NCBI GenBank assembly: GCA_965205165.1
Contig: OZ242037.1
Coordinates: 1,706,576 to 1,770,575 of the forward strand
Direction: 5' to 3'
DNA from: Dehalococcoidia bacterium
GTDB lineage: Bacteria; Chloroflexota; Dehalococcoidia; Bin125
Length of the DNA stretch: 64,000 nt
Below, one piece after another: positions 2,710 to 62,618 of the stretch. The notes below the pieces were generated by a model. It saw nothing but the letters and a program-made list of their open reading frames with translations, was not told the origin of the DNA and searched no databases. Positions within the stretch are counted from its first letter, which is position 1. The number at the start of each line of letters is the position of its first letter. The position numbers and the translations under genes were made by a program.

Positions 2710-2727
2710 GACTAAAATAGCACCTCC

Positions 2728-13174: not shown

Positions 13175-13192
13175 AGGCGCTATCCTGCGGGT
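13175..13192 (+). promoter_or_regulatory. Recurrent promoter-like motif GCGCTATCCTGCGG (approximate coordinates) ~25-30 nt upstream of the LLM oxidoreductase start
   Basis: The same 12-14-mer containing a TANNNT-type -10 hexamer (TATCCT) recurs upstream of at least four other genes in the window. It is followed by GAGGAGG and an ATG. Confidence 0.45.
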
Positions 13193-13213
13193 CTGCGCTG
13201 AGGAGGTGTCGCC

Positions 13214-15540: not shown

Positions 15541-15551
15541 CGGAGCCGGCC

Positions 15552-27468: not shown

Positions 27469-27593
27469 TGGGGGATGGTACGGGTGTTCTGCGGGGATGG
27501 GGCGGCGGCGGGGGAGGGAGTGTGGCGGGGGTTGCAGAGTGCTGGGGTAGGCTTCGGGGCGTCGGGAGTTGGCTTGGAGAGGGAGTCGGGGCT

Positions 27594-46253: not shown

Positions 46254-46386
46254 TTGGGTGCTCCGTTTCCGTTGAACAGGGTAGCAGCAGGTCGGGGGAT
46301 GGTCGCGGGTTCGGGATTGGCTACCCTAGCGGGGAGAGAGAGACGGGCGCGCCTTGGGGGGCGCGGCAAGCGAGGGAGGGTCGGAG

Positions 46387-47595
46387 ATGGCGGCACCTTT
46401 GGACGGGGTCAAGGTGGTGGATTTCACGCGGTACCAGAACGGGCCGCATGCGACGGCGATGCTGGCGGACATGGGGGCGGAGGTGCTGAAGGTGGAGATG
46501 CCGGGGAACGGGGATCCGGGGCGGCAGCTGGGGGTGGGGGCGGACGGGTTCTGCTCGTACTTCGAGGCGCTGAACCGGGGGAAGCGGTCGATGACGCTGG
46601 ATTTGCGGGCGGAGGGGGCGCTGGAGATCGTGCGGAAGCTGGTGGCTGAGGCGGATGTGCTGGCGGAGAATTTCCGGCCGGGGTACTTGGACAGCATCGG
46701 GCTGGGGTACGAGGATTTGAGGGGGGCGAATCCGCGGCTGATCTACGCGACGAACAGCGGGTTCGGACCGGAGGGGGAGTGGGCGAGGCGGGGGTCGTTC
46801 GACGTGGTGGCGCAGGGGATGAGCGGGGCGATGGTGGCGCTGGGCGGGGGGCCGGGGGAGCGGCCGATCACTGCGCCTTGGGGGTTGGCGGATCAGACGG
46901 GGAGCATCATGTTCGCGTACGGGATCGTGACGGCGCTGCTGGCGCGGGAGCGGTACGGGGTTGGGCAGAAGATCGACGTGTCGCAGCTGGGGGCGATGCT
47001 GACGCTGCAGGCGCTGTCGATTCAGGCGTACCTGCATTCGAAGACGCAGCCGGTGCTGAAGCCGGGGAAGTCGTTCAGCGCGACGTTTTCGTGGTACCAG
47101 TGCGGGGATGGGGAGTGGCTGACGGTGGGGGTGCTGGATCCGAAGTTCTGGCCGGTGCTGTGCGGGGTGCTGGAGCGGGAGGATTTGGTGGAGGATTCGC
47201 GGAGCGCGGATCCGTTCCAGCGGCGGGACAACGAGGAGTGGCTTCGGGGGGAGTTGGCGGAGGCGTTTTCGGCGCGATCGCGGGACGAGTGGATCGAGCG
47301 GCTGGCGGCGGGGAAGGTGCCGTGCGGTCCGGTGTACGACTACGCGCAGGTGGCGGAGGACGAGCATTTCTGGCTGAACGGGTACTTGCAGGAAGCGCCG
47401 CACCAGCATTTCGAGGCGCATCACGTGGTGGGGATTCCGGTGTCGTTCTCGGAGACGGGGACGCGGGTGGAGTCGGCTGCGCCGGAGCTGGGGCAGAACA
47501 CGGAGGAGGTGCTGCTGGGGCTGGGGTACGACTGGGGGGACATTGAGCGGCTGCACGATGCGGGGGTGACGGCGGTCAAGCGCAACGGGGCGTAG
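46387..47595 (+). CDS. CoA-transferase family III (CaiB/BaiF)
   Basis: The N-terminus 'LDGVKVVDFTRYQNGPHATAMLADMGAEVLKVEMP' is family-typical. Confidence 0.85.
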   Translation: MAAPLDGVKVVDFTRYQNGPHATAMLADMGAEVLKVEMPGNGDPGRQLGVGADGFCSYFEALNRGKRSMTLDLRAEGALEIVRKLVAEADVLAENFRPGYLDSIGLGYEDLRGANPRLIYATNSGFGPEGEWARRGSFDVVAQGMSGAMVALGGGPGERPITAPWGLADQTGSIMFAYGIVTALLARERYGVGQKIDVSQLGAMLTLQALSIQAYLHSKTQPVLKPGKSFSATFSWYQCGDGEWLTVGVLDPKFWPVLCGVLEREDLVEDSRSADPFQRRDNEEWLRGELAEAFSARSRDEWIERLAAGKVPCGPVYDYAQVAEDEHFWLNGYLQEAPHQHFEAHHVVGIPVSFSETGTRVESAAPELGQNTEEVLLGLGYDWGDIERLHDAGVTAVKRNGA

Positions 47596-47622
47596 GGGGC
47601 GCGGCCGCACGGCCGGGCGTGG

Positions 47623-47919
47623 TCAGCTGTTGCGCCACTCTTGGTAGTAGTAGGTCTCGGTGGTGCCGTCGGGGCAGGTGCGGCGTGCGGTGACCCAGTA
47701 GAGGTAGGTGGTGCTGTAGCGGGTGGCGTGGGCGTCGATGCGGCGCTCGGTGAGGATGGTGCGCGGGCAATTGTTGGAGACGGGCTCGACGGCGGGGGCG
47801 GTGGCCGCGGGGGCGATGCTGACGGCGGCGTCGGCGCCGCTGCCGGGGAGGAGGGCGATCAGGGCGAGGGCTGCTGCGGCGACAACAGCGGCGGCGAGGG
47901 CGGTGATGGGCGTGCGCAT
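47623..47919 (-). CDS. Short secreted Cys-pair protein (family S)
   Basis: A 98-aa product with a signal peptide (AxA-type) and two Cys spaced about 30 aa apart, then '...CPDG...YYYQEW'. Confidence 0.6.
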   Translation of the reverse strand: MRTPITALAAAVVAAAALALIALLPGSGADAAVSIAPAATAPAVEPVSNNCPRTILTERRIDAHATRYSTTYLYWVTARRTCPDGTTETYYYQEWRNS

Positions 47920-47951
47920 CGTTGTCAGGCTGCTTGCCGGTGCGGGGCTGG

Positions 47952-48317
47952 TCACGTGACGACCTGCCACTGGCGGTAGCGGACGGTGCCTGATTGGGCG
48001 TGGGTGCAGGTCTGGGTGCGGGTGTATTCGTAGAGCTCGTAGGTCACGCCGTCGACGACGGAGCGCTGGCCGAGGCTTCGCTTGGTGGTGGTGACGGACT
48101 GGCAGCGCTGGTCTTGGGTGTCGGAGAGGTCGGGGGCGGCGGTGGGCGCGAAGGCGGCGGCGGCGATGGCGTCGGGGGTTTCGGCGATGCCGGTCGAGGC
48201 GGCGTCGGCGCTGCTCCAGGCGAGGAGGCCGATCAGGGCGATTGCGGCGGCCGCGGCGATGGTGGTGAGGGCGGCGAGCTTGGCGGTGCGGAAGTGCGAT
48301 GCGGGGGTGTTCGTCAT
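47952..48317 (-). CDS. Short secreted Cys-pair protein (family S')
   Basis: A 121-aa product with a signal peptide. It is a near-duplicate of the 48434..48799 product. Confidence 0.6.
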   Translation of the reverse strand: MTNTPASHFRTAKLAALTTIAAAAAIALIGLLAWSSADAASTGIAETPDAIAAAAFAPTAAPDLSDTQDQRCQSVTTTKRSLGQRSVVDGVTYELYEYTRTQTCTHAQSGTVRYRQWQVVT

Positions 48318-48433
48318 GATGCTTCCTTCTCGCTGGCGGCGGTCTCGGCACCGTTGTCAGTGTACGGCGGGGGCGGGGGTTTGGCTCAGCTGGGCCGGTT
48401 CTCCCGGTGTACTGGCGGCGGTGCCGGGGCTGG

Positions 48434-48799
48434 TCAGGTGACGGCTTCCCACCCGCGGTAGCGGACGGTGCCTTCGTTGGCTCCGCCGCAGTCTCTGGTG
48501 TTGGTGTACTCGTAGAGCTGGTAGGTCACGCCGTTGACGACGGTGGTCTGTCCGAGGCTTCGCTTGGTGCTGCTCGTGGTACTGCACCAGCTTTGCGGGT
48601 CGGAGGGGTCGGGGGCGGTGGCGGGTGCGAAGGCGGCGGCGGCGGCGATGGCGGCGGGGGTTTCGGCGATGCTGGTCGAGGCGGCGTCGGCGCTGCTCCA
48701 GGCGAGGAGGCCGATCAGGGCGAAGGCGGCGGCCGCGGCGATGGTGGTGAGGGCGGCGAGTTTGGCGGTGCGGAAGTGCGATGCGGGGGTGCTGGTCAT
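48434..48799 (-). CDS. Short secreted Cys-pair protein (family S')
   Basis: A 121-aa paralog of the 47952..48317 product. The two share 'MT(N/S)TPASHFRTAKLAALTTIAAAAA' and '...VRYR.W..VT'. Confidence 0.6.
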   Translation of the reverse strand: MTSTPASHFRTAKLAALTTIAAAAAFALIGLLAWSSADAASTSIAETPAAIAAAAAFAPATAPDPSDPQSWCSTTSSTKRSLGQTTVVNGVTYQLYEYTNTRDCGGANEGTVRYRGWEAVT

Positions 48800-48833
48800 G
48801 ATGCCCGTCTCCTCTCGCTTGCGGGGGTTGGGC

Positions 48834-49145
48834 TCAGCTGCCCCAGTCTTCCCAGTATTGGTGGCGGCGCTGGTTGCGGTCGACGGTGCCGCCGCTGCCG
48901 TCTGGGCAGCGGTCGACGATGGTCTCTTCCCAGAGTCTGTGGTCGACGTAGCCGAAGGAGTCGCGGGTGACGCGGAGGAGGCGGGTGTTGATGACGACTT
49001 CGGTGCAGCCGGCTTGGGTTTGCGCGAGGCTGGGTTCGGCGGGGGCGGCGGGTACTGATGCGGCGCCGGCGGAGGTTGCCGCGAGGGCGAGCGCGCCGGC
49101 GGCGAGGGCGGCGGCGAGGGCGAGCTTGAGCTTGCGGGTGATCAT
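48834..49145 (-). CDS. Short secreted Cys-pair protein (family S)
   Basis: A 103-aa product with a signal peptide and 'C...TIVDRCPDGSGGTVDRNQRRHQYW'. Confidence 0.6.
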   Translation of the reverse strand: MITRKLKLALAAALAAGALALAATSAGAASVPAAPAEPSLAQTQAGCTEVVINTRLLRVTRDSFGYVDHRLWEETIVDRCPDGSGGTVDRNQRRHQYWEDWGS

Positions 49146-49169
49146 CGTTGCGCCTTTTTGGGGAGCGGG

Positions 49170-49478
49170 CTAGCCGTTGTCGAACTCTTGGACGTCGACC
49201 CAGTAGCGGACGCGGCGCTGGTTGAGGTCGACGGTGCCGCCGGCGGCGGTGGTGCAGCGGTCGACGATGGTGTCTTCGATTTGGCGCTGGTCGATGAAGT
49301 TGCCGTCGCGGGTTTCGCTGATGACGCGGGAGGAGATGGTGACGGTGGTGCAGTCATCGGTCGCCGTGCTGGCCTGCTGCGCACCGACGGGCTGGGAGGC
49401 GGGGATTGCGACGAGCAGGACGGCGGCGGCGAAGGCGGCCAGGGCGGCGGTGATGCGGAGGTTCCGCGATGCGGTCAT
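49170..49478 (-). CDS. Short secreted Cys-pair protein (family S)
   Basis: A 102-aa paralog of the 48834..49145 product, with 'C...TIVDRCTTAAGGTVDLNQRRVRYW'. Confidence 0.6.
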   Translation of the reverse strand: MTASRNLRITAALAAFAAAVLLVAIPASQPVGAQQASTATDDCTTVTISSRVISETRDGNFIDQRQIEDTIVDRCTTAAGGTVDLNQRRVRYWVDVQEFDNG

Positions 49479-49520
49479 GTTGGGAGGGCCTCTCGTTGGC
49501 GGCTGTTTTCGGTGGCGGGC

Positions 49521-49871
49521 TTAGCCGCCGTCGCGGGACCAGTAGCTGCGGGAGTAGCTGCGGTCGACGCCGTCGGTGCAGGTTCGCTGGATCTGCTGGG
49601 TGTAATGGACCCAGTCGCCGCCGTCATCGGTGGCGGCGTTCCGGCCTATCTCGCGGGGGGTCTGGGGTTCCCAGGTGCAGGTCACCTGCTGAGCGGGGGC
49701 TGGCTGGCCGGCGGGCGGTGCGAAGGAGATGGCGATGGTCTCGGCTTCGCCGGCGGGCGGGGCGACCTCGGCGGCGTCGGTCTGGGCGGTCCAAGCGAGG
49801 AGGGCGAGTGCCGCGAGGAGAGCGGCGAGCGGCAGTGCTCGGCTGCGGGCGGTGGTTTTGATGGATGGCAT
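49521..49871 (-). CDS. Short secreted Cys-pair protein (family S)
   Basis: A 116-aa product with a signal peptide and 'CTWEP...CTDGVDRSYSRSYW'. The GCTATCCTGCGCG motif lies upstream. Confidence 0.55.
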   Translation of the reverse strand: MPSIKTTARSRALPLAALLAALALLAWTAQTDAAEVAPPAGEAETIAISFAPPAGQPAPAQQVTCTWEPQTPREIGRNAATDDGGDWVHYTQQIQRTCTDGVDRSYSRSYWSRDGG

Positions 49872-49902
49872 CGGGTGCTCCCTTCGCGGGCGGGGCGGTC
49901 TG

Positions 49903-49922
49903 CCCTCGCGCAGGATAGCCGG
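49903..49922 (-). promoter_or_regulatory. Recurrent promoter-like motif GGCTATCCTGCGCG on the minus strand (approximate coordinates) upstream of the secreted-protein gene ending at 49871
   Basis: The reverse complement of 'cgcgcaggatagcc' lies about 40 nt upstream of the start codon. Confidence 0.4.
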
Positions 49923-49938
49923 GCGGGGCGTGGGCGGA

Positions 49939-50658
49939 TCAGTCGGCGAGGTGGGATTCGCCCTGCGGCGGGGTGACCTGGAAGGCGTCCGGGGTCAGGC
50001 CGGGGACGATGGAGACGCGCCAGAGGGTGACGCGGTAGCGGACGGTGATGATCGAGATGGGGGGAGCGGGGGGGATGAGGCCGGCGGGTGCGTCGCTGCC
50101 GTCGGTCATGATCGGGAGCCAGGTGCTGGTGCAGCGGTAGTCCTCGACGCGTTCGATCTGCTCGAAGAGGACGTCGTCGACGGTCTGGGTGAGGCCGGTG
50201 AGGCGGATGCTGTGGATGTCGTTGACGGGGCAGCGGGTCTGGTAGTGCCAGCGGAGCATGGGGTGCTTGTCGTCCTGCATGATCAGGGCGCATTGGAGTT
50301 GCAGGTCGGTGAGGCGGTCTTCCGGTGGGATGCGGGCGACGAGCTTGTCGGAGTCGTCGACGGTCGTGCCGCGGAGTCGGGCGAAGTAGCGGTCTTGGAG
50401 GATGTCGAGGCTGGGGACGCCGGAGCAGTCTGGGCGGTCGTCGTCGGGGTTCGCGGGGGGCGGGGCAGGGTCGTCGTCTCCGTCGTCGGCGTCGCCGGAA
50501 GCGGAGCTGGTTCCGCCGTTGCTTGTGCTGGTGTCGCCGTCGTCGGGCGTTTGGGCGGAGGCGGTTGCGGCGAGGGCGAATACGGCGGCGAGCACGAGGA
50601 GCAGCGCGGCGGGGAGGAGGGCGATGCGCCAGGCGGGTCGGCTTTCAGTCTTGGTCAT
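49939..50658 (-). CDS. Secreted protein carrying shared domain B only
   Basis: A signal peptide, an acidic linker, then domain B 'YFARLRG...DSD...IP..DRLTD...C...HP.L.W...T.C......RLTG.....D.......RV....C.....P.M.DGS..P..LIPP'. Confidence 0.6.
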   Translation of the reverse strand: MTKTESRPAWRIALLPAALLLVLAAVFALAATASAQTPDDGDTSTSNGGTSSASGDADDGDDDPAPPPANPDDDRPDCSGVPSLDILQDRYFARLRGTTVDDSDKLVARIPPEDRLTDLQLQCALIMQDDKHPMLRWHYQTRCPVNDIHSIRLTGLTQTVDDVLFEQIERVEDYRCTSTWLPIMTDGSDAPAGLIPPAPPISIITVRYRVTLWRVSIVPGLTPDAFQVTPPQGESHLAD

Positions 50659-50700
50659 GGGGCGATCCTTTCGCGGGCTCGGGGAGATGGGCGGTCTGGT

Positions 50701-51804
50701 TTAGGTGCATTCGCGCCAGCAGAGCCAGAAGTAGGCGGACGACGGGGCGGTGAGCACCGTTCTCGGCTCGCTGGGGGGGATGAGGTCTTCGGGCGGGGTG
50801 GAGCCGTCGTCCATGGCGGGTGTTTGGACGTAGCGGCATTCGGAGGTGGCGACGCGCTGGAGTTGGATGTAGACGCCGTCTTGCTGGCGTTCTTCGACGC
50901 CGGTTCGGCGGAGGGAGATGAGGTCGAGGATTCTGCAGGTGGTGGTCTCGGACCAGGAGAGGCCGGGGTGCTTGAGGTCTTGGAAGATCTGGGCGCATTC
51001 GCGGCCCTCGTCGGTGATGCGGTCGGCTTGGGGGATCTGGCTGACGAGCCTGTCGGAGTCGGGTTTGGTGGAGCCGCGGGCGCGGGCGAAGTAGCGGTCC
51101 GTGAGGTATGTGCCGTCGCCGTAGGTGTTCACGCATTGGGTGGGGGTGACGGTGCCGGGCGGGCGGGAGAACTGGAAGGTGAAGTCCTCCCAGACGTCGG
51201 TGTTTTCGTCTTGCTCGTTGAAGTAGATGCCGGCGTGGAGGTAGGCGGGGCCGCTGTGGCTGTCGGGGACGGTGAAGGAGATTTCGACGGGGAGGGCGTT
51301 TTCCTCGCTGGTGGCGGTGGTTTCGGTGGGCCAGTGGCCGTCGACGGTTTGGTCGCGCCTGTTGAAGGTGCCGAGGGTGCGGCGGTCGGAGAAGTCGTCT
51401 GGGAGGTAGATGTGTGCGCCGGCGATCAGGGAGCCGTCGGAGCCGGGGGCGTCGCGGAGTTCGAGGTACCACTGGTCGCGGTAGACGGCGCCGCGGATGT
51501 CCTGGACGTTCTCGGCGACGACGTTGGCGGGGCCGCAGTTGCCGATTCCCCACGCTCGGAGGTAGAGGGTGATGGAGGTGGCGCGGGTCCAGGAGTATGC
51601 GCCGGCGGTTCTCTGGACGCTGTCTTGGTTGGGGCAGATGGCGGTGTCGCCGACTTTGGCGTACCAGCGGCCGAACCATTCCCTGTTCTGGGCGTCGACG
51701 GAGGCGCGGGGGAGGAGCGCGGCGGTCGCGCCGAGCAGGATGGCGGCGGCGAGGGCGAGCAGGGCGAGTCGGCCGGCTGGGGCGTTTCGGGCGAGGCGGA
51801 TCAT
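50701..51804 (-). CDS. Secreted two-domain protein (domain A + domain B)
   Basis: A signal peptide, then domain A 'WFGRWYAKVGDTAICP...YLELRD...ISFTVPDSHSGPAYLHAGIYFNEQDENTDVWEDFTFQF', then domain B. A TAAGAT -10-like box lies upstream. Confidence 0.65.
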   Translation of the reverse strand: MIRLARNAPAGRLALLALAAAILLGATAALLPRASVDAQNREWFGRWYAKVGDTAICPNQDSVQRTAGAYSWTRATSITLYLRAWGIGNCGPANVVAENVQDIRGAVYRDQWYLELRDAPGSDGSLIAGAHIYLPDDFSDRRTLGTFNRRDQTVDGHWPTETTATSEENALPVEISFTVPDSHSGPAYLHAGIYFNEQDENTDVWEDFTFQFSRPPGTVTPTQCVNTYGDGTYLTDRYFARARGSTKPDSDRLVSQIPQADRITDEGRECAQIFQDLKHPGLSWSETTTCRILDLISLRRTGVEERQQDGVYIQLQRVATSECRYVQTPAMDDGSTPPEDLIPPSEPRTVLTAPSSAYFWLCWRECT

Positions 51805-51844
51805 CGCGGCACTTCCCGTTTGCGGCGGGCTTGGCGGATCGGGG

Positions 51845-51858
51845 CGATCTTACCCTGA
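51845..51858 (-). promoter_or_regulatory. -10-like TAAGAT element (minus strand, 'cagggTAAGATcgc', approximate coordinates) upstream of secreted-protein gene 50701..51804
   Basis: The 'cagggtaa(a/g)at' context matches that of the paralogous gene. Confidence 0.4.
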
Positions 51859-51877
51859 AGGGGGGTGGCTGGCGGGG

Positions 51878-52528
51878 CTAGGCGCAGTCTTCCCAGCAGA
51901 GCCAGAAATAGGCGACGTGGGGGCCGGTGATTTCGGTTCTGGGTTCGCTGGGGGGGATCAGGTCGTCGGGCGGGGTTGAGCCGTCGTCCATGGCGGGGGT
52001 TTGAACGTGCTGGCAGGAATGTGAGGCGGTGCGCTGGAACTGGGCGTAGGTGCCGTCTTGGCGTTCTTGGCGGGAGCCGGTGAGGCGCAGCGATTCGACG
52101 AGGTGGATGCGGCAGGTGACGCGCTCAGACCAGGAGAGGCCGGGGTGGGCCTCGTTTTGGAGGGACTGGGCGCAGAGGCGCTCATCGGCGGTGAGGCGGT
52201 CGGCTTGGGGGATGGCGGCGAGGCGGCGGTCGGAGCCGTCTTTGTCGGAGCTGGGGATGCGGGCGAAGTAGGTGTTTTGGAGGTCTTGCAGGCCTCCGCT
52301 GTACTGGAGGCACTCGGGGCTGTCGGAGGCGGTGCCAGCGGCACCGGCGCCGGCGGGCGGGTTGTCGTCGCCTTCGCTGATGGTGATCGGGGTGGATGCG
52401 GAGTTGCCGGTTTGCTGTGCGGAGGCGGTTGCGGAGGCGGCGATGATGGCGGCGAGTGCGAGGAGCAGGGCGGCGGCGAGGAGTGCGGGGCGCGGGGAGA
52501 GCGCGGCTTCGAGGTTTTTCCGGGTCAT
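51878..52528 (-). CDS. Secreted protein carrying domain B only
   Basis: A 216-aa paralog of the 49939..50658 product, with '...YFARIPSSDKDGSDRRLAAIPQADRLTADERLCAQ...PAMDDGSTPPDDLIPP'. Confidence 0.6.
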   Translation of the reverse strand: MTRKNLEAALSPRPALLAAALLLALAAIIAASATASAQQTGNSASTPITISEGDDNPPAGAGAAGTASDSPECLQYSGGLQDLQNTYFARIPSSDKDGSDRRLAAIPQADRLTADERLCAQSLQNEAHPGLSWSERVTCRIHLVESLRLTGSRQERQDGTYAQFQRTASHSCQHVQTPAMDDGSTPPDDLIPPSEPRTEITGPHVAYFWLCWEDCA

Positions 52529-52563
52529 GGGGCGTCCTTTCGGGGGCGGGCGGGGGGGCTCTC

Positions 52564-53619
52564 CTAGATCCAGAAGTAGTGGATGAGGGGGCCGGTGGCT
52601 TCGGTCCTGGTCTCGTAGGGGGGGATCAGGTAGCCGGGGACGTGGGAGCGGTCGCTCATCGTGGGACTTGCGGTGTGGCTGCAGTCGAAGGTGGCGGTGC
52701 GCTGGACTTGGTAGTGGAGGTGGCCGTCGGCGCCTCGTTGCTCGGAGCCGGTGCGGCGGAGGGAGATGAGCCTGGTGAGGGAGCAGTCGGTGTCGTGCTG
52801 CCAGGTCAGTGCGGGCCATTGGAGGTTTTGGAGGACTTGGGCGCAGTAGCGCTGGTCGGCGGTGATGCGGTCGGCTTGGGGCGTTCGCCAGAGGGCGTTG
52901 TTCCTGGTGCCGTCGGCATTGAGGGCGTAGTAGCGGTTTTGGATGGTTTCCAGGGCGCCTGGGAGCACGGAGCAGGTCGGGTTGGGGCGGGAGAACTGGA
53001 AGGTGAAGTCTTCCCAGACATCTTCGTTTTCGTCTTGCGAGTTGAAGTAGATGCCGGCGTGGAGGTAGACGGCGCCGGCGTGGTCGTCGGGGATGGTGAA
53101 GGAGATTTCAGCGGCGCGGACGGGGACCTCTTGGTGGTTGAGGGTCGGCCAGTTGCCATCGGTGGTCTGGTCGCGCCTGTTGAGGGTGCCGCTGGTGCGG
53201 CGGCCGCGGAAGTTGTCGGGGAGGTCGATGTGGGCGCCGTCGATCAGGGAGCCGCGGGAGCCGGAGGCGTCGCGGAGTTCGAGGTACCACTGGTTGCGGT
53301 AGATGGCCCCGTCGACGCTGCCGACGGTCTGGGCGACGACGTTGTCCGGGCTGCAGTCGCTGATGCCCCATTCCCTGAAGTGGAGGGTGATGGAGGTGGA
53401 TCCGGTTGTGGAGTAGTCGCCGGCGTCGGCGACGATGTCGTTTTGTTCGGGGCAGATGGGGGTGTTGCCGACTTTGGCGTACCAGCGGCCGAACCAGTTC
53501 ATGTTCTGGGCGTCGGCGGGGGCGCGGGGGAGGAGTGCGGCGGTTGCGCCGAGCAGGATGGCGGCGGCGAGGGCGAGCAGGGCGAGTCGGCGGGCGGGGA
53601 TTCTCGGGGTGATGGTCAC
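52564..53619 (-). CDS. Secreted two-domain protein (domain A + domain B), paralog of 50701..51804
   Basis: Domain A 'WFGRWYAKVGNTPICP...' is followed by a divergent domain B. The start is probably the GTG at 53619. A TAAAAT -10-like box lies upstream. Confidence 0.6.
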   Translation of the reverse strand: MTITPRIPARRLALLALAAAILLGATAALLPRAPADAQNMNWFGRWYAKVGNTPICPEQNDIVADAGDYSTTGSTSITLHFREWGISDCSPDNVVAQTVGSVDGAIYRNQWYLELRDASGSRGSLIDGAHIDLPDNFRGRRTSGTLNRRDQTTDGNWPTLNHQEVPVRAAEISFTIPDDHAGAVYLHAGIYFNSQDENEDVWEDFTFQFSRPNPTCSVLPGALETIQNRYYALNADGTRNNALWRTPQADRITADQRYCAQVLQNLQWPALTWQHDTDCSLTRLISLRRTGSEQRGADGHLHYQVQRTATFDCSHTASPTMSDRSHVPGYLIPPYETRTEATGPLIHYFWI

Positions 53620-53654
53620 GGCGCGTCCTGTTCCCGGTGCGGTTGTCGGCAACG

Positions 53655-53670
53655 GGAATTTTACCCTGAG
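53655..53670 (-). promoter_or_regulatory. -10-like TAAAAT element (minus strand, 'cagggTAAAATtcc', approximate coordinates) upstream of secreted-protein gene 52564..53619
   Basis: An AT-rich hexamer in an otherwise ~70% GC intergenic region, about 40-50 nt upstream of the start. The paralog at 51845..51858 has a matching element. Confidence 0.4.
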
Positions 53671-53705
53671 TCGGGGCAGATGAGGCCGCGAAGATCGGGG
53701 GGCGG

Positions 53706-54365
53706 TCAGCTGGAGGGGGCGGGGATGGCGGCGGGGACGGAGGTGGTCCAGTACTGGTTGTCGATGGTCTGGGTGACGCGTCCGCAGGCGCGGGAGCCGA
53801 CGACGCGGACTTCGTAGACGACGCGGTGGTTGGGGCCGTACATGCCGCGGCGGAGGATCGTCGGGGAGAGGGTTTGGATGGGACCGCAGATGGTCCATTG
53901 CTGGGCATAGGCGGTTCGGCCGCATTCGTTGCGCTCGGTGTTGCGCCAGAGGTATTCGGTGCGGCCGTTGGAGGTGCGCTGGTTGAGGGTTTCGTCGGTG
54001 ATGGTCTTGATGCCGGAGCAGCCGCCGGTGTAGGCGTTGGGGATGTCGGACAGGCGGGTTGGGGACCAGTAGGTCAGCCTTGTGTTGACGGCGGTGCCGT
54101 CGCAGTCGCGCCAGGTGTCTTCGGAGTAGGGGGTGGCGTTGGAGTAGCCGCCGTTGCTGTAGACCAAGCCGGGGCGGCCGATCTGGCGGATGGTGCGCTG
54201 GAGGATGTAGGGGCAGTCTTCGGGGGAGCTGGCGTCGGTGCGGTCGACGGCGCGGGGGGCTTGGGGGAGGGGGCTGGTGCGGGAGTCGGCGGGCTGGGCG
54301 GCGAACGTCCAGGCGGAGAGGCCGGCGATGAGGGCGAGGAGGGCGGCGAGGGTGATCTTGGTCAT
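53706..54365 (-). CDS. Secreted Cys-rich protein (distinct family)
   Basis: A 219-aa product with a signal peptide and six Cys. No family was recognised. Confidence 0.5.
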   Translation of the reverse strand: MTKITLAALLALIAGLSAWTFAAQPADSRTSPLPQAPRAVDRTDASSPEDCPYILQRTIRQIGRPGLVYSNGGYSNATPYSEDTWRDCDGTAVNTRLTYWSPTRLSDIPNAYTGGCSGIKTITDETLNQRTSNGRTEYLWRNTERNECGRTAYAQQWTICGPIQTLSPTILRRGMYGPNHRVVYEVRVVGSRACGRVTQTIDNQYWTTSVPAAIPAPSS

Positions 54366-54504
54366 GGGGGTGCTCCGGATTCCGCCAGCGGCGGTTGGTC
54401 TGGATTCTAGGCGGTTCGGAGGGCGCGTGTCAGGGTGCGGGGGTTGCGGCTGTGGTGCTGCATCATCGTCGTCTCGCGGGCGGGCCCGGATCGGATAGGC
54501 CGCG

Positions 54505-55410
54505 CTAGGACTGGTGGTGGATTTCGGGCGGGATGCGGTCGACTGGGGCGCCGTAGGTGGTTCGGCTGGTGTAGGCGCGGCCGTTGCAGTTGTAGGTGGC
54601 GGTTACCTGGATCGAGATGTAGCGGACTTGGCTGCCGGCGTCGGGCGAGTCGTAGGGCTCGCCGATCTGTTGGACGATGCGCTCGACGGGGCCGACGCAG
54701 GCGCGGTGCGCGGGGGCGTTGAACTTGAGGCGGGCGTGGGTGTGCTTGACGTCATTGGCCCACATGGTGAGATGGAGCCAGACGGGGCCGGAGTGGGAGC
54801 GGGGCACGGAGAAGCGGATGTTGACGCGGGGGAGGTTGCCGACGTGGAGCGCGCCGTCTTGGTCGCAGTAGCCGAAGGTTCCCTTGTCGGGCGAGGCTCC
54901 GATGCGGCGGGCGTAGATGCGATTGTAGGTCTCGCCGTCGGCGTTGCGCCAGGAGCCGTCGCTGCAGGTGAGGCCGCTGACGTACTCGATGTCGGCGCCC
55001 GGGACGAGGTCGCCGGTCTCGCCATGGGCGGTCGAATCGGACGAGGTGATTTTGAGTTCGTAGGCCGAGATGGGGTAGTCGAAGGGGGCGGGGGTGTGGG
55101 TTCTGCAGGGGAGGCCGCGGCCGAGGCGGAAGGCGACGGAGTTCCAAGCGCCGTTGTCGGCGTAGGGGGCGCTGGCGGTGCGGTCGCAGACGTTGCGGTT
55201 TTGGACGGAACCCCAGGTGGTGCCGGCTTCGCCGAGCTGTGCGGTGATGCTGGAGTTGCCTTGGCGCCAGGCGACGGCGCCGGGGTTGCCGTCGGCATCG
55301 GCGGGGGCGGGGGCGAGGAGGAGCCAGCCGCCGAGGAGGAGGGCGAGGGTCAGGGCGAGGAGGGCGGCGCGGCGGAGGGCGGGCCGGGGCCGTGGGGCGG
55401 AAGCGGTCAT
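54505..55410 (-). CDS. Secreted protein sharing sub-domain C1 with 55441 and 56689 products
   Basis: A signal peptide is followed by a C-terminal 'ACVGPVERIVQQIGEPYD...YNCNGRAYTSRTTYGAPVDRIPPEI', comparable with 'CVGPIQRHVQRIG...VDRIPRDI'. Confidence 0.55.
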   Translation of the reverse strand: MTASAPRPRPALRRAALLALTLALLLGGWLLLAPAPADADGNPGAVAWRQGNSSITAQLGEAGTTWGSVQNRNVCDRTASAPYADNGAWNSVAFRLGRGLPCRTHTPAPFDYPISAYELKITSSDSTAHGETGDLVPGADIEYVSGLTCSDGSWRNADGETYNRIYARRIGASPDKGTFGYCDQDGALHVGNLPRVNIRFSVPRSHSGPVWLHLTMWANDVKHTHARLKFNAPAHRACVGPVERIVQQIGEPYDSPDAGSQVRYISIQVTATYNCNGRAYTSRTTYGAPVDRIPPEIHHQS

Positions 55411-55440
55411 GGTTCGGTTCCCTTCAGGCCGGAGGGGGTT

Positions 55441-56658
55441 CTAGGGCGCGGTGATGGTGGCGGGGACGTTGTAGGTCCAGAGGAGGTTGATGAACCAGTA
55501 GGGGCAGCTGGCGTCGAGTTCTTGTCCGCTGAGCTGGTGGCGGAGGTCGACTTGGTAGGCGATGCGGTTGTCGGCGGTGATGCGGCGCTGGAGGATGATC
55601 GGCGTCTGGCTGAGGATGCCGCCGCCGCAGGTGGTGACGCCGATCACGGTGCCGGGGTTGGGGGTGCCGCCGCCGCAGCCTTGGTCGGCCCAGCGGAGCT
55701 GGAAGGAGTAGGCGGTGCGGCCGCCGCGCTGGCCGGCGACGTGCAGGCTGTTGTCCTTGTCGCGCTGGTAGTCGGAGGTGATGCCGGACTTGATCAGGTT
55801 GCAGTCGGCGTGCGGTCGGGGGATATCGCGCGGGATGCGGTCGACCGGGACTCTGTAACGGGTGCGGGTGGTTCGGGCGGTGCCGTCGCAGTCGTGGATT
55901 TCGGTGACTTGGATCACTTGGCGCGAGTTCAGGGGCGGGCCGATTCTTTGGACATGGCGCTGGATGGGGCCGACGCAGGCGTTGGAGGCAGGCGGCGTTG
56001 GAGGCGGGTTGAACTTGAAGGTGAAGGGTTCCCAGACGTCGTTGTTGTCGTGTTGCTCGTTGAAGAAGACGCTGACGTAGAGGTAGACGGGGCCGGTGTG
56101 GCTGCTGGGGACGGTGAAGGAGATTTGGGCGGTTCTCATGTAGGGGCCGCCGCCGTAGTTGGAGTAGTTGGGCCAGTCGCCGTCGCTGGCTTTGTCGAGG
56201 GAGTTGTGGGTGCCGGTGGTGCGTCGGCCGCTGAAGGTGGCGGGGAGGGTGATGCCTGCGCCGCTGATCAGGGAGCCGCCGGTGCCGGTGGCGGTGCGCA
56301 GCTGCATGGTCCAATTGCCGGCGTAATCAGCGCCTTCCTCGCCGCTCTGGGAGTCGGTGAGGACGTTGGAGTCGCTGCAGTTGGGGAGGTCGAAGGCCAG
56401 CATGCGGAGGGTGATCGTGGTGGGGGAGGTGCGCGAGTATTCGCCGGCATCGGCTTCGGTGGCGGTTTCGTCGGGCGGGCAGATGGCGGTGTCGCCGACT
56501 TTGGCGTACCAGCGGCCGTAGAGGTCCCCGGCTTGGGCATCGGCCATGGCGGTGGAGAGAGCGATGGAGCCGGCGAGGAGAAGGGCGAGGGCCAGGGCGA
56601 GCAGGGCGGCGCGACCGAGGGCGGGATGCCGGCGGGTTGCGGGAGCGAGGGTGGTCAT
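55441..56658 (-). CDS. Secreted two-domain protein (domain A + domain C)
   Basis: A signal peptide, then domain A ('GRWYAKVGDTAICP...FTFKF'), then domain C ('CVGPIQRHVQRIG...CGGGILSQTP...SCPYWFINLLWTYNVPATITAP'). Confidence 0.65.
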   Translation of the reverse strand: MTTLAPATRRHPALGRAALLALALALLLAGSIALSTAMADAQAGDLYGRWYAKVGDTAICPPDETATEADAGEYSRTSPTTITLRMLAFDLPNCSDSNVLTDSQSGEEGADYAGNWTMQLRTATGTGGSLISGAGITLPATFSGRRTTGTHNSLDKASDGDWPNYSNYGGGPYMRTAQISFTVPSSHTGPVYLYVSVFFNEQHDNNDVWEPFTFKFNPPPTPPASNACVGPIQRHVQRIGPPLNSRQVIQVTEIHDCDGTARTTRTRYRVPVDRIPRDIPRPHADCNLIKSGITSDYQRDKDNSLHVAGQRGGRTAYSFQLRWADQGCGGGTPNPGTVIGVTTCGGGILSQTPIILQRRITADNRIAYQVDLRHQLSGQELDASCPYWFINLLWTYNVPATITAP

Positions 56659-56688
56659 GGGGTGTTCCCTTCCACGCCGCAGGGTGCG

Positions 56689-57912
56689 TTACGGGGCGGT
56701 GATCGTCTCCGGGACGTCGTAGGTCCAGAGGAGGTTGATGAACCAGTAGGGGCAGCTGGCGTCGAGTTCCTGGCCGCTGATCTGCTGGTGGAGGTCGACT
56801 TGGTAGGCGATGCGGTTGTCGGCGGTGATGCGGCGCTGGCGGATGGTGGGGGTTTGGCTGAGGATGCCTCCGCCGCAGGAGGTGACGCCGATTGTGGCGC
56901 CGGAGTTGGGGGTGCCGCCGCCGCAGCCGAGGTCGGCCCAGCGGAGATAGAAGGAGTACATGTCGCGGCCGTTTCGCCGGCTGGCGACGCGCAAGCTGCC
57001 GTCGGGGTTGAGGGCGTAGCCGAAGGTGATGCCGGACTTGATCAGGTTGCAGTCGGCGTGGGGGCGGGGGATGTCGCGCGGGATGCGGTCGACCAGGACT
57101 CTGGAGGTGGTGCGGGTGGTTCGGGCGGTGCCGTCGCAGTCGTGGATGTCGGTGACTTGGATCACTTGGAACGAGTTCAGAGGGAGGCCGATTCTTTGGA
57201 CGTGGCGCTGGATGGGGCCGACGCAGGAGTCGGAGGCGGGTGGGTCGAACTTGAAGGTGAAGTCCTCCCAGACGTCGTTGTTGTCGTGTTGCTCGTTGAA
57301 GTAGGCGCCGGCGTGGAGGTAGACGGGGCCGCCGTGGCTGTCGGGGACGGAGAAGGAGATGGCGACGGGGTGCATGGCGGGGACGCGAAAGTCCCAGTGG
57401 ACTTCGCCGTTGGGCCAGTCGCCGTCGGTGGTTTGGTCGCGCCTGTTGTGGAGGCCGCTGGTGCGGCGGCCGGTGAAGGTGTCGGGGAGGGTGATGTAGG
57501 CGCCTTGGATCAGCTGGCCGCCGGATCCGGTGCCGGTGCGGAGTTCGAGGTACCAGCGGCCGCTGTAGGAGGCCCCCTCGGTGTAGTCGCTGCCGCGTGT
57601 TCCCCAGCGGAGTTGGTCGACGTTGTCGGGGCCGCAGTCTTCGATTTCCCAGTCCTTGAAGTTGAGGGTGATCGTGTTGGCGGCGGTTCTGGAGTAGGTG
57701 CCGGCGTCGGCCTCGATGTCGGTGTAGGCGGGGCAGATGGCGGTGCCGCCGACTTTGGCGTACCAGCGGCCGTAGGGGCTCATGTTCTGGGCGTCGACGG
57801 CGGCGGGGGCGAGGAGGAGCCAGCCGCCGAGGAGGAGGGCGAGTGTCAGCGCGAGCAGGGCAGCGCTGCGGAGGTCGGGGCGGCGGCGGTGGGCGGCGGC
57901 AGGGGCGGTCAT
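56689..57912 (-). CDS. Secreted two-domain protein (domain A + domain C), paralog of 55441..56658
   Basis: A 407-aa product with the same architecture. Domain C is about 85% identical to that of the 55441..56658 product. Confidence 0.65.
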   Translation of the reverse strand: MTAPAAAHRRRPDLRSAALLALTLALLLGGWLLLAPAAVDAQNMSPYGRWYAKVGGTAICPAYTDIEADAGTYSRTAANTITLNFKDWEIEDCGPDNVDQLRWGTRGSDYTEGASYSGRWYLELRTGTGSGGQLIQGAYITLPDTFTGRRTSGLHNRRDQTTDGDWPNGEVHWDFRVPAMHPVAISFSVPDSHGGPVYLHAGAYFNEQHDNNDVWEDFTFKFDPPASDSCVGPIQRHVQRIGLPLNSFQVIQVTDIHDCDGTARTTRTTSRVLVDRIPRDIPRPHADCNLIKSGITFGYALNPDGSLRVASRRNGRDMYSFYLRWADLGCGGGTPNSGATIGVTSCGGGILSQTPTIRQRRITADNRIAYQVDLHQQISGQELDASCPYWFINLLWTYDVPETITAP

Positions 57913-57998
57913 GGGCTGGTTCCTTTTCCGCGGGCATCGTATACGAGCGGTTGGCTCGGCGGTGGGGCGGGTGGGATCATGGGGAATTTCCGGGGCGG

Positions 57999-58712
57999 TC
58001 AGGTGCCGTTGATGGCGGCGTCCGGGTCGAAGGTGCGGATGTTCCAGGATTGGCGGAGGTCGCCGTCGGCGCATTCGCGGGTGATGGTGACGCGGACGTT
58101 GTAGACCATTTTCCAGTCGGAGCGGCGGACGGAGCGCCCGGTGATGACGCCGGTGCGTTCGGAGATGCGGCTGCAGCTGTTCCAGTGGCTGAAGTTGGCG
58201 CCGAGTCTGGCGCCGCAGGCGTCGACGACGGATTGGCCCCATTCGTACTGGGTTCGGCCGTTTCTGACGCGCTGTCCGCGGCGTTCCAAGTTCCAGCTGG
58301 CTTGGATGTAGCGGCAGGCGGGGGCTTCGACGAGGGCGATGGGGTCGGGGAGGTCGGTGGTCCAGAAGGTGCGGTTGTTGATGGTGTAGTTGCCGTTGCA
58401 GTCGTATCCCTCGCCGACGCGGAGGTGCCAGTTGACGCTGGCGGCCTGCATTTCGGCGAGGCTGTTCCAATGGCGGGTGAAGGCGCTGGCGGGGACGGTG
58501 CTGATCACGAAGACGCGGCGTTCGAGCAGGGTGTCGTCGCACCAAGCGGCGGGGGCGAGGCGGTCGACGGCGGCGGTTTGGGGGGCGCCGGCGGGCGGGC
58601 GGTCGGCGGCGGCGCCGGCGGAGGAGATGAGGGCGAGCGCGGCGATGGCTGCGAGCGCGGCGGCGGTCAGGGTCGCCGGGATGGAGCGGGCTTTGATGCC
58701 GTCTATGCGCAT
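57999..58712 (-). CDS. Secreted Cys-rich protein (distinct family)
   Basis: A 237-aa product with a signal peptide and eight Cys. No family was recognised. Confidence 0.5.
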   Translation of the reverse strand: MRIDGIKARSIPATLTAAALAAIAALALISSAGAAADRPPAGAPQTAAVDRLAPAAWCDDTLLERRVFVISTVPASAFTRHWNSLAEMQAASVNWHLRVGEGYDCNGNYTINNRTFWTTDLPDPIALVEAPACRYIQASWNLERRGQRVRNGRTQYEWGQSVVDACGARLGANFSHWNSCSRISERTGVITGRSVRRSDWKMVYNVRVTITRECADGDLRQSWNIRTFDPDAAINGT

Positions 58713-58833
58713 CTTGGAACCTCGCGGCCATGCACTGGGGGGTCAGGCACTGGCGATTTCGGGTCGGACGGGTGGAGCATATCGGAGCGGGGCGGGGGCG
58801 GGATCGGCCGTTATGGCGGGTGTTGGCGGCGGA

Positions 58834-59523
58834 TCAGCCGGGCGGATCTTGTTCGGGGACGTCGTCGGTCCAGAGGGTGTTGGTCAGCGTTTCGGGGCAA
58901 TCGTCGGCTGCGCCGCTGAGGCGGTGGGTGAGGCGGATTTCGTAGAGGACGCGGCTGCTGGCGTCGACGGCGCGGCGGAGGGTCTCGATCTGCTGGGATT
59001 CGAGGCCGCCGCCGCAGTAGGTTTCGGCGAGGATGTTGCCGTGGCTGGGGCCGTGGGTTGCGGAGTCGCCGCAGGTATCGGAGGGCCACTGGATGCGGAA
59101 GAAGTAGCGGGCGCCTTGGGCGGCCTGGGAGGTGAGGAGGTTGCCGAGGTTGTTGCGGTCGTAGGCCCAGTTGATGCCGGTTTTGACGAGGCGGCAGGAG
59201 GGTGCGGGGGTGGGGGCGATGTCGGGCGGGGGGCTGCCGGGAGCGCGGACGTAGAAGACGCGGTTGGTGCGGGCGGCTCCGTCGCAATCCCAGACGGAGG
59301 TTTCGAGCACGCCGATGGAGCGGACGCCGTTCTTGAGGTAATGGCCGATCACGTTGGAGGTGCGGGAGAGGGGGCCTTCGCAGCCGGGCAGGGAGCGCTG
59401 GGCGGTCTGCGGCGGGGCTGCGGCGCCGAGGGCGGGATTGGAGAAGGAGGCGGCTCCGGCGACGGCGATCAGGCCGGCGAGCGCTCCGAGGGCGGCCACT
59501 GCGGCGGCGAGGAGCTTGGCCAT
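58834..59523 (-). CDS. Secreted protein related to sub-domain C2
   Basis: A signal peptide is followed by a C-terminal 'YCGGGLESQQIETLRRAVDASSRVLYEIRLTHRLSGAADDCPETLTNTLWTDDVPE', comparable with 'CGGGILSQTP...CPYWFINLLWTY.VPE'. Confidence 0.55.
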   Translation of the reverse strand: MAKLLAAAVAALGALAGLIAVAGAASFSNPALGAAAPPQTAQRSLPGCEGPLSRTSNVIGHYLKNGVRSIGVLETSVWDCDGAARTNRVFYVRAPGSPPPDIAPTPAPSCRLVKTGINWAYDRNNLGNLLTSQAAQGARYFFRIQWPSDTCGDSATHGPSHGNILAETYCGGGLESQQIETLRRAVDASSRVLYEIRLTHRLSGAADDCPETLTNTLWTDDVPEQDPPG

Positions 59524-59593
59524 GCGGCTTCCTTTCGCACGGGCCCTCGGCAGGGGCTCTCAGCGGCAGCCTAGCGGGGCCCGGGCGCGCGGG

Positions 59594-59935
59594 TCAGATG
59601 AGGCCGGTGGTTTCGATCCAGCGGGAGCGGGTGGTGTAGGAGCGGGAGCGGATGGTGATGGTGGTGCCGGGGACGTCTTCGCGCCAGGTGCAGGTGTAGT
59701 GGTAGGTGCGCTCGATGGTTTGGGTTCGGCGGGTGCCGCTGGTGCCTTGGGCGACGACGCGGTCGGTTTGGGAGACCAGCGAGCAGGTCTCGTCTTCGCG
59801 GGGGTTGTCGTCGGATTGGGCGGAGGCGGACGGGGAGAGGGCGGCCGAGGCGGCGATGACGAGGGCGGCGACGGCGATTGCGGCGACTGCGGGGAGGATG
59901 ATCGCGGGGAGTCGGCGGGTGCGGAGAGCGGTCAT
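59594..59935 (-). CDS. Short secreted Cys-pair protein (family S'')
   Basis: A 113-aa product with a signal peptide and 'ETCSLVSQTDRVVAQGTSGTRRTQTIERTYHYTCTW...WIETTGLI'. Confidence 0.55.
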   Translation of the reverse strand: MTALRTRRLPAIILPAVAAIAVAALVIAASAALSPSASAQSDDNPREDETCSLVSQTDRVVAQGTSGTRRTQTIERTYHYTCTWREDVPGTTITIRSRSYTTRSRWIETTGLI

Positions 59936-59991
59936 GGCGGCCTCCTTCGGCGTTCGGGTTTGCGGGGGCAAGCCTACGCGGTTGGGCGGGG

Positions 59992-60303
59992 TCAGATGAG
60001 GCCGGTGGTTTCGGTCCAGCGGGTGCGGATGGAGTAGGAGCGGACGGTGTAGGTGGGGTATCGCTGGCCGGGTTCGTCGTGGCGCAGGCTGCAGAGGTAC
60101 GTGGTGGTGCGTTCGATGGTTTGGGTTCGGCGGGTGCCGCTGGTGCCTTGGGAGATGACGCGGTCGGTTTCGCGGAAGAGGATGCAGGTTTCGCCTTCGC
60201 GGGGGCCGTTGTCGGATTGAGCGGAGGCGTTGGGTGAGAGTGCGGTCCAAGCGGCGATGACGAGGACGGCGGCGGCGATTGAGGCGATGGCGGTGTTCTT
60301 CAT
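59992..60303 (-). CDS. Short secreted Cys-pair protein (family S''), paralog of 59594..59935
   Basis: 'ETCILFRETDRVISQGTSGTRRTQTIERTTTYLCS...WTETTGLI' is about 70% identical to the 59594..59935 product. A GGAGGA RBS precedes the ATG at 60303. Confidence 0.55.
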   Translation of the reverse strand: MKNTAIASIAAAVLVIAAWTALSPNASAQSDNGPREGETCILFRETDRVISQGTSGTRRTQTIERTTTYLCSLRHDEPGQRYPTYTVRSYSIRTRWTETTGLI

Positions 60304-60354
60304 GGCGGCATCCTCCGATGTTCGACGGGGCAAGCCTACGCCGATCGGGGCGGG

Positions 60355-62616: not shown

Positions 62617-62618
62617 TG

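Follow-up and report, generated by a model that had tools for sequence, protein, structure and literature searches.

A lineage-specific array of exported proteins in Dehalococcoidia includes eight conserved two-cysteine mini-proteins with a predicted three-stranded module

The chaplins of Streptomyces (short ChpD-H and long ChpA-C; PF03777) are several small, Sec-exported paralogues with a domain of about 50 aa in which two cysteines form an intramolecular disulfide. These proteins are β-rich and self-assemble at the cell surface, the longer paralogues contain more than one domain, and the domains are strongly hydrophobic, amyloid-forming and surface-active. The small secreted cysteine-rich effectors of host-living fungi and oomycetes are lineage-restricted orphans with signal peptides, even numbers of cysteines and tandem paralogues. 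Lactococcin 972 is a β-rich protein of approximately 60-70 aa in its mature form that is exported with a classical signal peptide and contains no cysteine. Here we compare with these systems an array of exported proteins encoded in a Dehalococcoidia genome, within a window that comprises the whole 64,000-nucleotide stretch of DNA analysed.

The array consists of 18 genes for exported proteins, spans 12.7 kb and is flanked by purQ/purL on one side and by genes for a CoA-transferase, a ferredoxin and an SDR protein on the other. In the two nearest species of the genome collection (L007 and L008), purL lies directly beside the CoA-transferase gene with no array between them and, judging from this gene order, the array is a lineage-specific insertion at a conserved purL/CoA-transferase junction. 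The genes for the mini-proteins occupy both ends of the array, g1-g6 at one end and g17-g18 at the other. At the first end, g1 (47623-47919, on the minus strand, as are all the genes listed here) encodes 98 aa with a signal peptide of about 31 aa, an Ala/Pro-rich linker, Cys51/Cys82 and a CPDG turn; g2 (47952-48317; 121 aa; Cys72/Cys104) encodes the mini-protein that was modelled with AlphaFold; g3 (48434-48799; 121 aa) is a paralogue of g2, with which its 5′ half appears to have been homogenised; g4 (48834-49145; 103 aa; Cys47/Cys80) has a CPDG turn and an acidic module (pI 5.5); g5 (49170-49478; 102 aa; Cys43/Cys75) combines a short linker with a still more acidic module (pI 4.3); and g6 (49521-49871; 116 aa; Cys65/Cys98) has a CTDG turn and orthologues that are about 90% identical. 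At the other end, g17 (59594-59935; 113 aa; Cys51/Cys82) has a longer loop after the second cysteine, and g18 (59992-60303; 103 aa; Cys40/Cys71), which is 66% identical to g17, starts 51 nt downstream of purL. Between the two groups lie the larger exported paralogues g7-g10 (49939-53619; 239, 367, 216 and 351 aa), g11 (53706-54365; 219 aa; Cys 51/88, 116/148 and 160/194) and g12-g16 (54505-59523; 301, 405, 407, 237 and 229 aa). The genes share a strand, and the short gaps around the mini-genes (24-139 nt) suggest co-transcription; a promoter and terminator scan of the array gave only background-level signals, and an Rfam scan of the window detected no RNA families.

Each of the eight mini-proteins comprises a signal-peptide-like N-terminus, a short linker and a module of 50-66 aa with exactly two cysteines, and a six-frame HMM scan located exactly eight copies of this module in the window. 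Four residues in the pattern C-x7-R...C...W (the two cysteines, an arginine 8 residues after the first of them, and a tryptophan) are invariant in the eight paralogues and throughout an alignment of 59 sequences. All 18 array proteins carry N-termini that resemble Sec signal peptides according to a rule-based check of the n-, h- and c-regions, with 1-4 K/R in the n-region, a hydrophobic h-region (12-residue Kyte-Doolittle mean 2.3-3.1) and AXA-type cleavage sites (ADA/AGA/ASA/VGA/TDA); a lipobox cysteine is absent. The number of cysteines is even in every array protein (2, 4, 6 or 8), and a spacing of 32-34 recurs. The original prediction, made from the sequence alone, described six adjacent genes encoding a signal peptide and a two-cysteine module, along with a further pair of like pattern at 59594 and 59992, and the ORF calls bear out both groups, the latter as g17 and g18. 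Some details had to be amended. The cysteine pair is indeed conserved, but its members are 31-33 positions apart (30-32 residues between them) rather than 25-32; the Ala/Pro-rich linker ascribed to all six proteins is present in g1-g4 and g6 (16-30 aa, 43-57% A+P) but not in g5, where, as in g17 and g18, the linker has only 7-9 aa and is not A/P-rich; and the proposed C(P/T)DG tail holds for g1, g4 and g6, whereas the general pattern at the second cysteine is a Cys, a short turn and then a G.

In a high-GC genome with very strong skew, long open frames arise easily, and the window contains many overlapping ORFs, so that the small frames might be spurious products of extreme strand composition bias. 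The observations leave this explanation a negligible probability. The GC3 of the mini-genes is 0.85-0.93, similar to that of the neighbouring genes, and such values are confined to these frames; Shine-Dalgarno-like sequences precede most of them; and 1:1 orthologues of all eight were identified in six related metagenomic loci (L001-L006). The pooled dN/dS, well below 1, is 0.21 for the module compared to 0.47 for the signal peptide and linker, with gene-specific module values of 0.27 (g1), 0.14 (g2), 0.14 (g4) and 0.09 (g5); the value for g3 is higher (0.58), with low dS. These ratios indicate that the module is under purifying selection. Together with the four residues invariant across the 59 sequences and the confident AlphaFold prediction for the module, this pattern of conservation effectively refutes the spurious-frame explanation. 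The eight small genes are thus genuine and conserved and encode exported proteins, chance ORFs being ruled out because 1:1 orthologues exist and purifying selection acts on the module.

The family is an orphan, confined to a single narrow group of Dehalococcoidia that probably live in association with sponges. When 1.84 billion representative proteins were searched exhaustively with a profile, only orthologues were retrieved. Scans of the mini-proteins and the larger proteins against Pfam, NCBIfam and PADLOC yielded only sub-threshold matches, mostly to signal-peptide or low-complexity regions (for example CU044_5270_fam, which scored 24 bits where the cutoff is 100); the sole PADLOC match had an E-value of 0.0098 and no matched stretch. 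There was no match among PDB sequence profiles (A1, A2), no relative in the genome collection when the conserved motifs of the large proteins were used, none in a scan of JGI metagenomes with the g4/g5 motifs, no record for the exact g4 sequence, and nothing relevant in the literature on a described sponge-symbiont secreted family. Homologues of g13 numbered 13 among 5.8 billion protein clusters. A 461-aa profile-search match (P0094) was rejected as a relative since it is a translated DNA repeat. Another candidate locus (L090), where mini-genes beside TamB and Omp85 genes hinted at an outer membrane, was rejected as a chimeric contig: the reading frame of a g4-like signal peptide continues into a biotin-lipoyl protein, and both GC content and skew shift at about nt 830. 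With regard to habitat, the two closest relatives that the genome collection contains include bin125 (68% identity in purL) from the sponge Aplysina aerophoba (PMC5649159), a hint that sponge tissue is the likely habitat.

The mini-proteins resemble chaplins in being small exported paralogues with a two-cysteine domain that is accompanied by longer, multi-domain paralogues. However, PF03777 matches none of the eight mini-proteins or the 59 family members, the modules are hydrophilic (GRAVY −0.64 to −1.22) as opposed to the hydrophobic chaplin domains, the longer paralogues of the array lack a sortase signal, and both phylum and habitat differ. With the fungal and oomycete effectors, the mini-proteins share orphan status, signal peptides, even numbers of cysteines, tandem paralogues and a probable host-associated life of the organism, but they are bacterial, contain a single cysteine pair, evolve under purifying rather than diversifying selection and belong to a gene set that is stable across strains.

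The original prediction proposed a search for a conserved β-hairpin or disulfide in AlphaFold models. In the model of g2, the module is predicted to be a three-stranded antiparallel β-meander (residues 70-121 with pLDDT 82-89; strands 72-88, 91-104 and 110-119). The first cysteine precedes strand 1 by about 3 residues and the second lies where strand 2 ends; a disulfide between the two would thus shut the first hairpin at its open end. The model of g11, built from 10 sequences and with one of five AlphaFold models confident, contains three consecutive units of the mini-module type in the same strand and cysteine register (units 2-3 with pLDDT 86-92), and the 3-residue offset by which the first cysteine precedes the position paired with the second is identical in all four predicted units of g2 and g11. 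By structural match, the nearest PDB neighbours of the g11 model are WD40, sialidase and lectin propellers. Like β-propellers and small oligomeric propeller lectins, the array proteins are predicted to use repeated antiparallel β-meander units; the unit, however, has three strands instead of four and no repeat-family sequence signature. This predicted three-strand β-sheet module, with its putative disulfide closure, is previously undescribed.

Cysteine-bracketed units also occur in the larger proteins. The C-terminal domain shared by g7-g10, which have no Pfam matches, includes such a unit with cysteines 33-34 apart, and g8 and g10 carry, in addition, an N-terminal domain of about 170 aa with the motif GRWYAKVG; g13 and g14 combine the N-terminal domain with units similar to those of g11 and g16, the latter protein being specific to this strain. 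In profile-profile comparisons, the mini module matched the g7-g10 unit in cysteine register (E 7e-4) and g11 unit 2 matched the mini profile (E 8e-3), whereas five of the seven module profiles gave no significant result. An HMM built from the mini-proteins scored 4-8 bits against the units of the larger proteins in the window, and 2-8 of 850 shuffled decoys scored as high. Thus, the homology of the mini module to these units is supported mainly by predicted structure, the sequence signal being weak. In a more divergent lineage (L087), the module is C-terminal to RCC1_2 repeats in one protein (14 bits), and in another a g2-like module is joined to He_PIG, an Ig-like domain (29 bits); none of the 850 shuffled decoys reached either score. 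Taken with the strand and cysteine register in the AlphaFold models and the weak profile-profile signal, these fusions make the mini module appear to be the very building block of the larger proteins. Because the module is apparently shared in this way, the relation of the mini-proteins to the larger proteins looks like one of paralogues, not of a distinct class of partners.

This apparent kinship bears on the proposal that the mini-proteins are cognate partners of the larger proteins, that is, inhibitors, immunity proteins or chaperone-like caps. Their placement in one array with the larger genes, with a shared strand and gaps of 24-139 nt, is compatible with such a role, as are their complementary acidic and basic pI values, and a shared module would permit homotypic docking. 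On balance, we consider a partner role decidedly unlikely. All eight mini-genes are present in each of the related loci, whereas the complement of larger genes ranges from 5 to 10. The two groups do not co-vary 1:1: L005 has the full set of mini-genes and lacks g8, g12, g13 and g15, and the mix in L087 is different again. Furthermore, database scans identified no toxin or enzyme domain in the larger proteins that could be a target of inhibition, proteinaceous enzyme inhibitors such as SSI and tendamistat gave no sequence or fold match, and the mini-proteins resemble the larger proteins' own units instead of a separate inhibitor fold. The idea of cognate inhibitors, as initially put forward, is weakened by the retention of the mini-genes amid variation of the larger genes and by the sharing of the module, although physical association of the two groups of proteins could still occur.

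Antimicrobial activity, in the form of Sec-dependent, bacteriocin-like peptides or precursors of modified peptides, would be in keeping with small, secreted, cysteine-containing tandem paralogues that are limited to a single lineage, and lactococcin 972-type proteins resemble the mini-proteins in mature size (about 60-70 aa), β-rich structure and export by a signal peptide. Nonetheless, we regard this as highly improbable: neither the array nor its flanks contain genes for immunity proteins, ABC exporters, leader peptidases or other proteases, modification enzymes or toxins; no bacteriocin model in Pfam or NCBIfam matches; the N-termini are those of classical signal peptides, not leader peptides; the cysteines, which lactococcin 972 lacks, are conserved here; and the module is found within large multi-domain proteins as well. 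The presence/absence polymorphism among strains that the original prediction had suggested looking for did not materialize either, all eight paralogues being strictly conserved across the six related loci. The initial bacteriocin-like or immunity reading is thus unsupported, with neither linked machinery nor a model match.

A different possibility is that the symbiont releases the mini-proteins as soluble effectors, perhaps resembling lectins, that bind to host or matrix and function independently of the larger proteins, possibly after self-assembly into small rings. The signal peptide, the lack of an anchor motif in the mini-proteins, the hydrophilic nature of the modules and their conserved R, W and Y residues, the restriction to a single lineage whose nearest relative is a sponge symbiont, and the L087 fusions to an RCC1 propeller and to the adhesion-type He_PIG domain all speak for this option. 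However, there is no significant sequence or structural match to any lectin, the module is well conserved (dN/dS 0.1-0.3) whereas effectors that face a host typically diversify, and the sponge habitat is itself inferred. We consider free effectors unlikely.

The explanation that we favor, while judging it somewhat short of even probability, is that the mini-proteins represent the free, single-module part of an extracellular protein set specific to this lineage and probably assemble with their paralogues. Chloroflexota are generally single-membraned, and for this reason we propose that all 18 proteins are exported across one membrane and become oxidised outside the cell. Cleavage at the AXA site would leave a mature mini-protein composed of a flexible linker and the hydrophilic module of 50-66 aa. 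Since an isolated sheet of three strands lacks a core, free modules would be expected to associate, by packing or by edge-pairing, either among themselves or with the multi-module paralogues. The resulting assembly might form a structure outside the cell or on its surface, or decorate one, with the module serving as a unit of association or attachment. Each of the eight paralogues is conserved in its own right, and their charges differ (pI 4.3-9.6, with acidic and basic members mixed), which suggests non-redundant, possibly heteromeric roles. Contact with matrix or host is a plausible purpose given the likely sponge habitat. Both the oligomeric assembly of the modules and the surface or host role of the array proteins are inferred. 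As initially suggested, the mini-proteins belong with the larger cysteine-containing proteins downstream, and an extracellular or cell-surface role is still the most plausible general class.

A more specific version of the favored explanation, which we consider quite unlikely as a whole, is that the eight mini-proteins, each of them conserved and their charges complementary, join the multi-module paralogues outside the cell to form a heteromeric β-sheet structure of a kind not known before (a surface coat, fibre or propeller-like ring). The building unit would be a new disulfide-closed three-strand domain that evolved in a single clade of sponge-associated Dehalococcoidia, and the assembly would serve attachment to the sponge host or recognition by it. 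Little is understood of the cell surface and the host contact of sponge-associated Chloroflexota, which are abundant and uncultured. The array encodes 18 exported proteins that are kept across strains, with a small domain that has no relatives among approximately 15 billion predicted proteins and no PDB match. Should these proteins turn out to be abundant in the sponge matrix or on the cell surface, they would offer a handle on the envelope architecture of the symbiont or on its interaction with the host, and they would also provide a new small disulfide-stabilised β domain whose expression and structure determination should be easy. Otherwise, the array is another case of hypothetical exported proteins forming an orphan family, such as are common in metagenome-assembled genomes.

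Finally, the relationships among the adjacent paralogues depart in detail from the two recently duplicated pairs (47952/48434 and 48834/49170) first supposed. The g2 and g3 proteins are 75% identical overall but only 58% identical in the modules, g4 and g5 are 43% identical, and each of the four genes has its own orthologue in all six related loci. The signal peptide and linker of g2 and g3 are 87% identical within this genome compared to 63-65% identity to the g2 orthologues in L001-L004, a difference that indicates homogenization of the 5′ ends of the two genes by gene conversion.

The mini-genes are a genuine, well-defined orphan family, and the module they share is a small new domain within an array of exported proteins that is specific to the lineage; the family belongs to a familiar general kind, the taxon-restricted small secreted proteins containing cysteines. 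In agreement with the original prediction, we found six neighbouring minus-strand ORFs within 47623–49871 (g1, 47623–47919; g2, 47952–48317; g3, 48434–48799; g4, 48834–49145; g5, 49170–49478; g6, 49521–49871), with products of 98–121 aa, and a further minus-strand pair of the same type at 59594–59935 (g17) and 59992–60303 (g18). Each mini-protein contains exactly two cysteines, 31–33 positions apart. The third-position GC of these ORFs (0.85–0.93) is like that of the genes around, and a Shine-Dalgarno-like GGAG/GAAGG lies 5' of most of them. In the eight aligned mature modules, the C-terminal units that follow signal peptide and linker, Cys 1, an Arg eight residues on, Cys 2 and a Trp close to the C-terminus are invariant, and so is this quartet in a 59-sequence alignment. 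An A/P-rich linker is present in g1–g4 and g6; that of g5, g17 and g18 is short, with no A/P enrichment. GRAVY values of −0.6 to −1.2 mark the modules as hydrophilic; the modules of g4–g6 are acidic, and those of g1, g2, g17 and g18 basic.

The minis occupy both ends of an 18-gene array (12.7 kb, 47623–60303) that runs on a single strand with gaps of 24–139 nt. By a rule-based check, all 18 products have signal-peptide-like N-termini: the n-region is charged, the h-region is hydrophobic, and an AXA-type site is present. The number of cysteines is even in every array protein (2, 4, 6 or 8), and a spacing of 32–34 between cysteines recurs in the larger proteins, the genes for which form overlapping paralogue groups. 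Searches of Pfam, NCBIfam and PADLOC returned no match for any array protein.

Among 5.8 billion protein clusters, a search with one of the larger proteins, g13 (405 aa), recovered only 13 relatives, all derived from metagenome assemblies. The contigs carrying them (L001–L005 and L006, the latter part of a 2.84 Mb circular contig) contain the same array, with purL on one side and a CoA-transferase gene on the other. All eight mini-genes have a one-to-one orthologue in each of these six loci, at 66–99% identity. Most show a dN/dS of 0.2–0.4 (Nei-Gojobori); when split by region, the pooled value is 0.21 for the module, falling to 0.09–0.14 in g2, g4 and g5, and 0.47 for the less constrained signal peptide and linker. 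Reference values for the flanking purL, purQ and CoA-transferase genes are mostly 0.09–0.15. The mini ORFs are real genes.

The complement of larger genes differs among genomes, from 5 in L005 to 9–10 in the other near-identical loci, and still all eight minis are present in every related locus. One larger gene, g16 (58834–59523; 229 aa), resembles the C-terminal half of g13/g14, occurs in the window and is missing from all six near-identical loci; the alignment of the window with L006 breaks exactly around it, and g16 is a strain-specific gain or loss. The bacteriocin, immunity and inhibitor roles initially proposed for the minis find no supporting gene or domain, and they are further weakened because the minis do not co-vary with particular larger genes.

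Two pairs of minis had been taken for recent duplicates, a reading that neither pair sustains. The signal-peptide and linker halves of g2 and g3 (47952–48799) are 87% identical to each other within the window genome but only 63–65% identical to the g2 orthologues in L001–L004, whereas the two modules share 58% identity with each other and 89–98% with their own orthologues. This pattern indicates gene conversion limited to the 5' halves, and g2 and g3 look recently duplicated only because these halves were homogenised in the window genome. The other pair, g4 and g5, is 43% identical, and both genes are already present in the divergent L087 lineage. More broadly, dS in the comparisons of the window with L001, L003 and L004 is about 0.1–0.3 for array genes as opposed to 0.7–0.9 for the flanking purL and purQ, and nucleotide identity across 46354–63305 is 86–88% over g1–g11 compared with about 80% over g17, g18, purL and purQ. 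The low divergence of the array may reflect recombination or an array exchanged between lineages, or else constrained codon usage.

An AlphaFold2 model of g2, built with the 59-sequence alignment, is confident for residues 70–121 (pLDDT 82–89), and its signal peptide and linker are predicted with low confidence. The predicted module consists of three long antiparallel strands (72–88, 91–104 and 110–119), with strand 1 beginning at Cys72 and strand 2 ending at Cys104. The larger protein g11, for which one of five models from an alignment of 10 sequences was confident, is predicted to comprise three consecutive units of the same layout (pLDDT 86–92 in units 2–3), in which each cysteine pair (51/88, 116/148 and 160/194) brackets strands 1–2 and the third strand follows. 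In all four predicted units, the position paired with Cys 2 comes three residues after Cys 1, a geometry consistent with a hairpin-closing disulfide.

The mini HMM matches the larger proteins of the window weakly (4–8 bits), in register with the cysteine pairs. In profile-profile comparison, the mini module matched the g7–g10 unit (E 7e-4) and g11 unit 2 (E 8e-3), and no other unit of the larger proteins significantly. The link between the mini module and larger proteins is clear in the more divergent loci L087–L089, where an array of different composition lies at the same site, adjoining the CoA-transferase gene. There, L087 encodes a 690-aa exported protein (1320–3392) with RCC1_2 repeats (E 1e-54) and a C-terminal mini-type module (14 bits), and a 204-aa protein (8954–9568) in which a g2-like module (29 bits) precedes an Ig-like domain of the He_PIG type (24.4 bits, with the cutoff at 24). 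Both module scores exceed those of all 850 shuffled decoys. Given the RCC1 and He_PIG fusions, the module behaves as an extracellular domain that is portable.

A sheet of three strands lacks its own core. For this reason, and because each of the eight paralogues is conserved individually and the unit also occurs in tandem or fused to binding-type domains, we favour a scheme in which the free mini modules would associate with each other or with their multi-module paralogues. Such association would yield, we infer, an extracellular or surface assembly with a role possibly relevant to life in sponge tissue.

The purL sequences most similar to that of the window (68%) come from two Dehalococcoidia/Chloroflexota MAGs, one of which, MPNM01 'bin125', originates from the sponge Aplysina aerophoba (PMC5649159). 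Both have an orthologous CoA-transferase gene (79% identical) directly after purL, with no array between, and neither tblastn nor a six-frame HMM scan detected array homologues in 80 purL loci of other species. The same type of scan counts exactly eight module copies across the window. All 53 proteins retrieved by a word-indexed profile search are orthologues of the eight minis, and an HMM searched exhaustively against 1.84 billion representative proteins gave nine matches, eight of them orthologues or divergent orthologues; the ninth, a translated DNA repeat, was rejected as a relative. The naming convention of the PANK22-1_SAMN1229xxxx samples suggests that they may be sponge metagenomes. 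A further metagenome contig, L090, is chimeric: at 736–981 a g4-like signal peptide runs in frame into a biotin-lipoyl protein, with a shift in GC and skew at about nt 830, followed by TamB and Omp85 genes from another organism.

The strand composition of the window is extremely asymmetric. Between 22 kb and 64 kb the plus strand has a GC skew of +0.3 to +0.48 irrespective of gene orientation; at third codon positions the skew reaches +0.62 in genes on the plus strand, and −0.75 in minus-strand genes when these are read on their coding strand. The skew has the opposite polarity at 1–9 kb. The change, which falls between about 9000 and 22000, resembles a replication origin or terminus switch with unusually strong skew. 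Near it lies a ParB-domain ORF (24820–27597, minus strand), a single 925-aa open frame with ParB_N and HTH_ParB at residues 106–299 and a luciferase-like monooxygenase domain at 627–865, which may be a fusion or two same-frame genes read through. Lower-GC stretches (53–58%) within 8933–18517 carry defence-type genes, encoding a ResIII/DEAD helicase (8933–10486), a HATPase_c_3 protein (10450–12288), an N6_N4 DNA methylase (15483–17207) and an ApeA-HEPN protein (17204–18517), and a luciferase-like monooxygenase sits among them.
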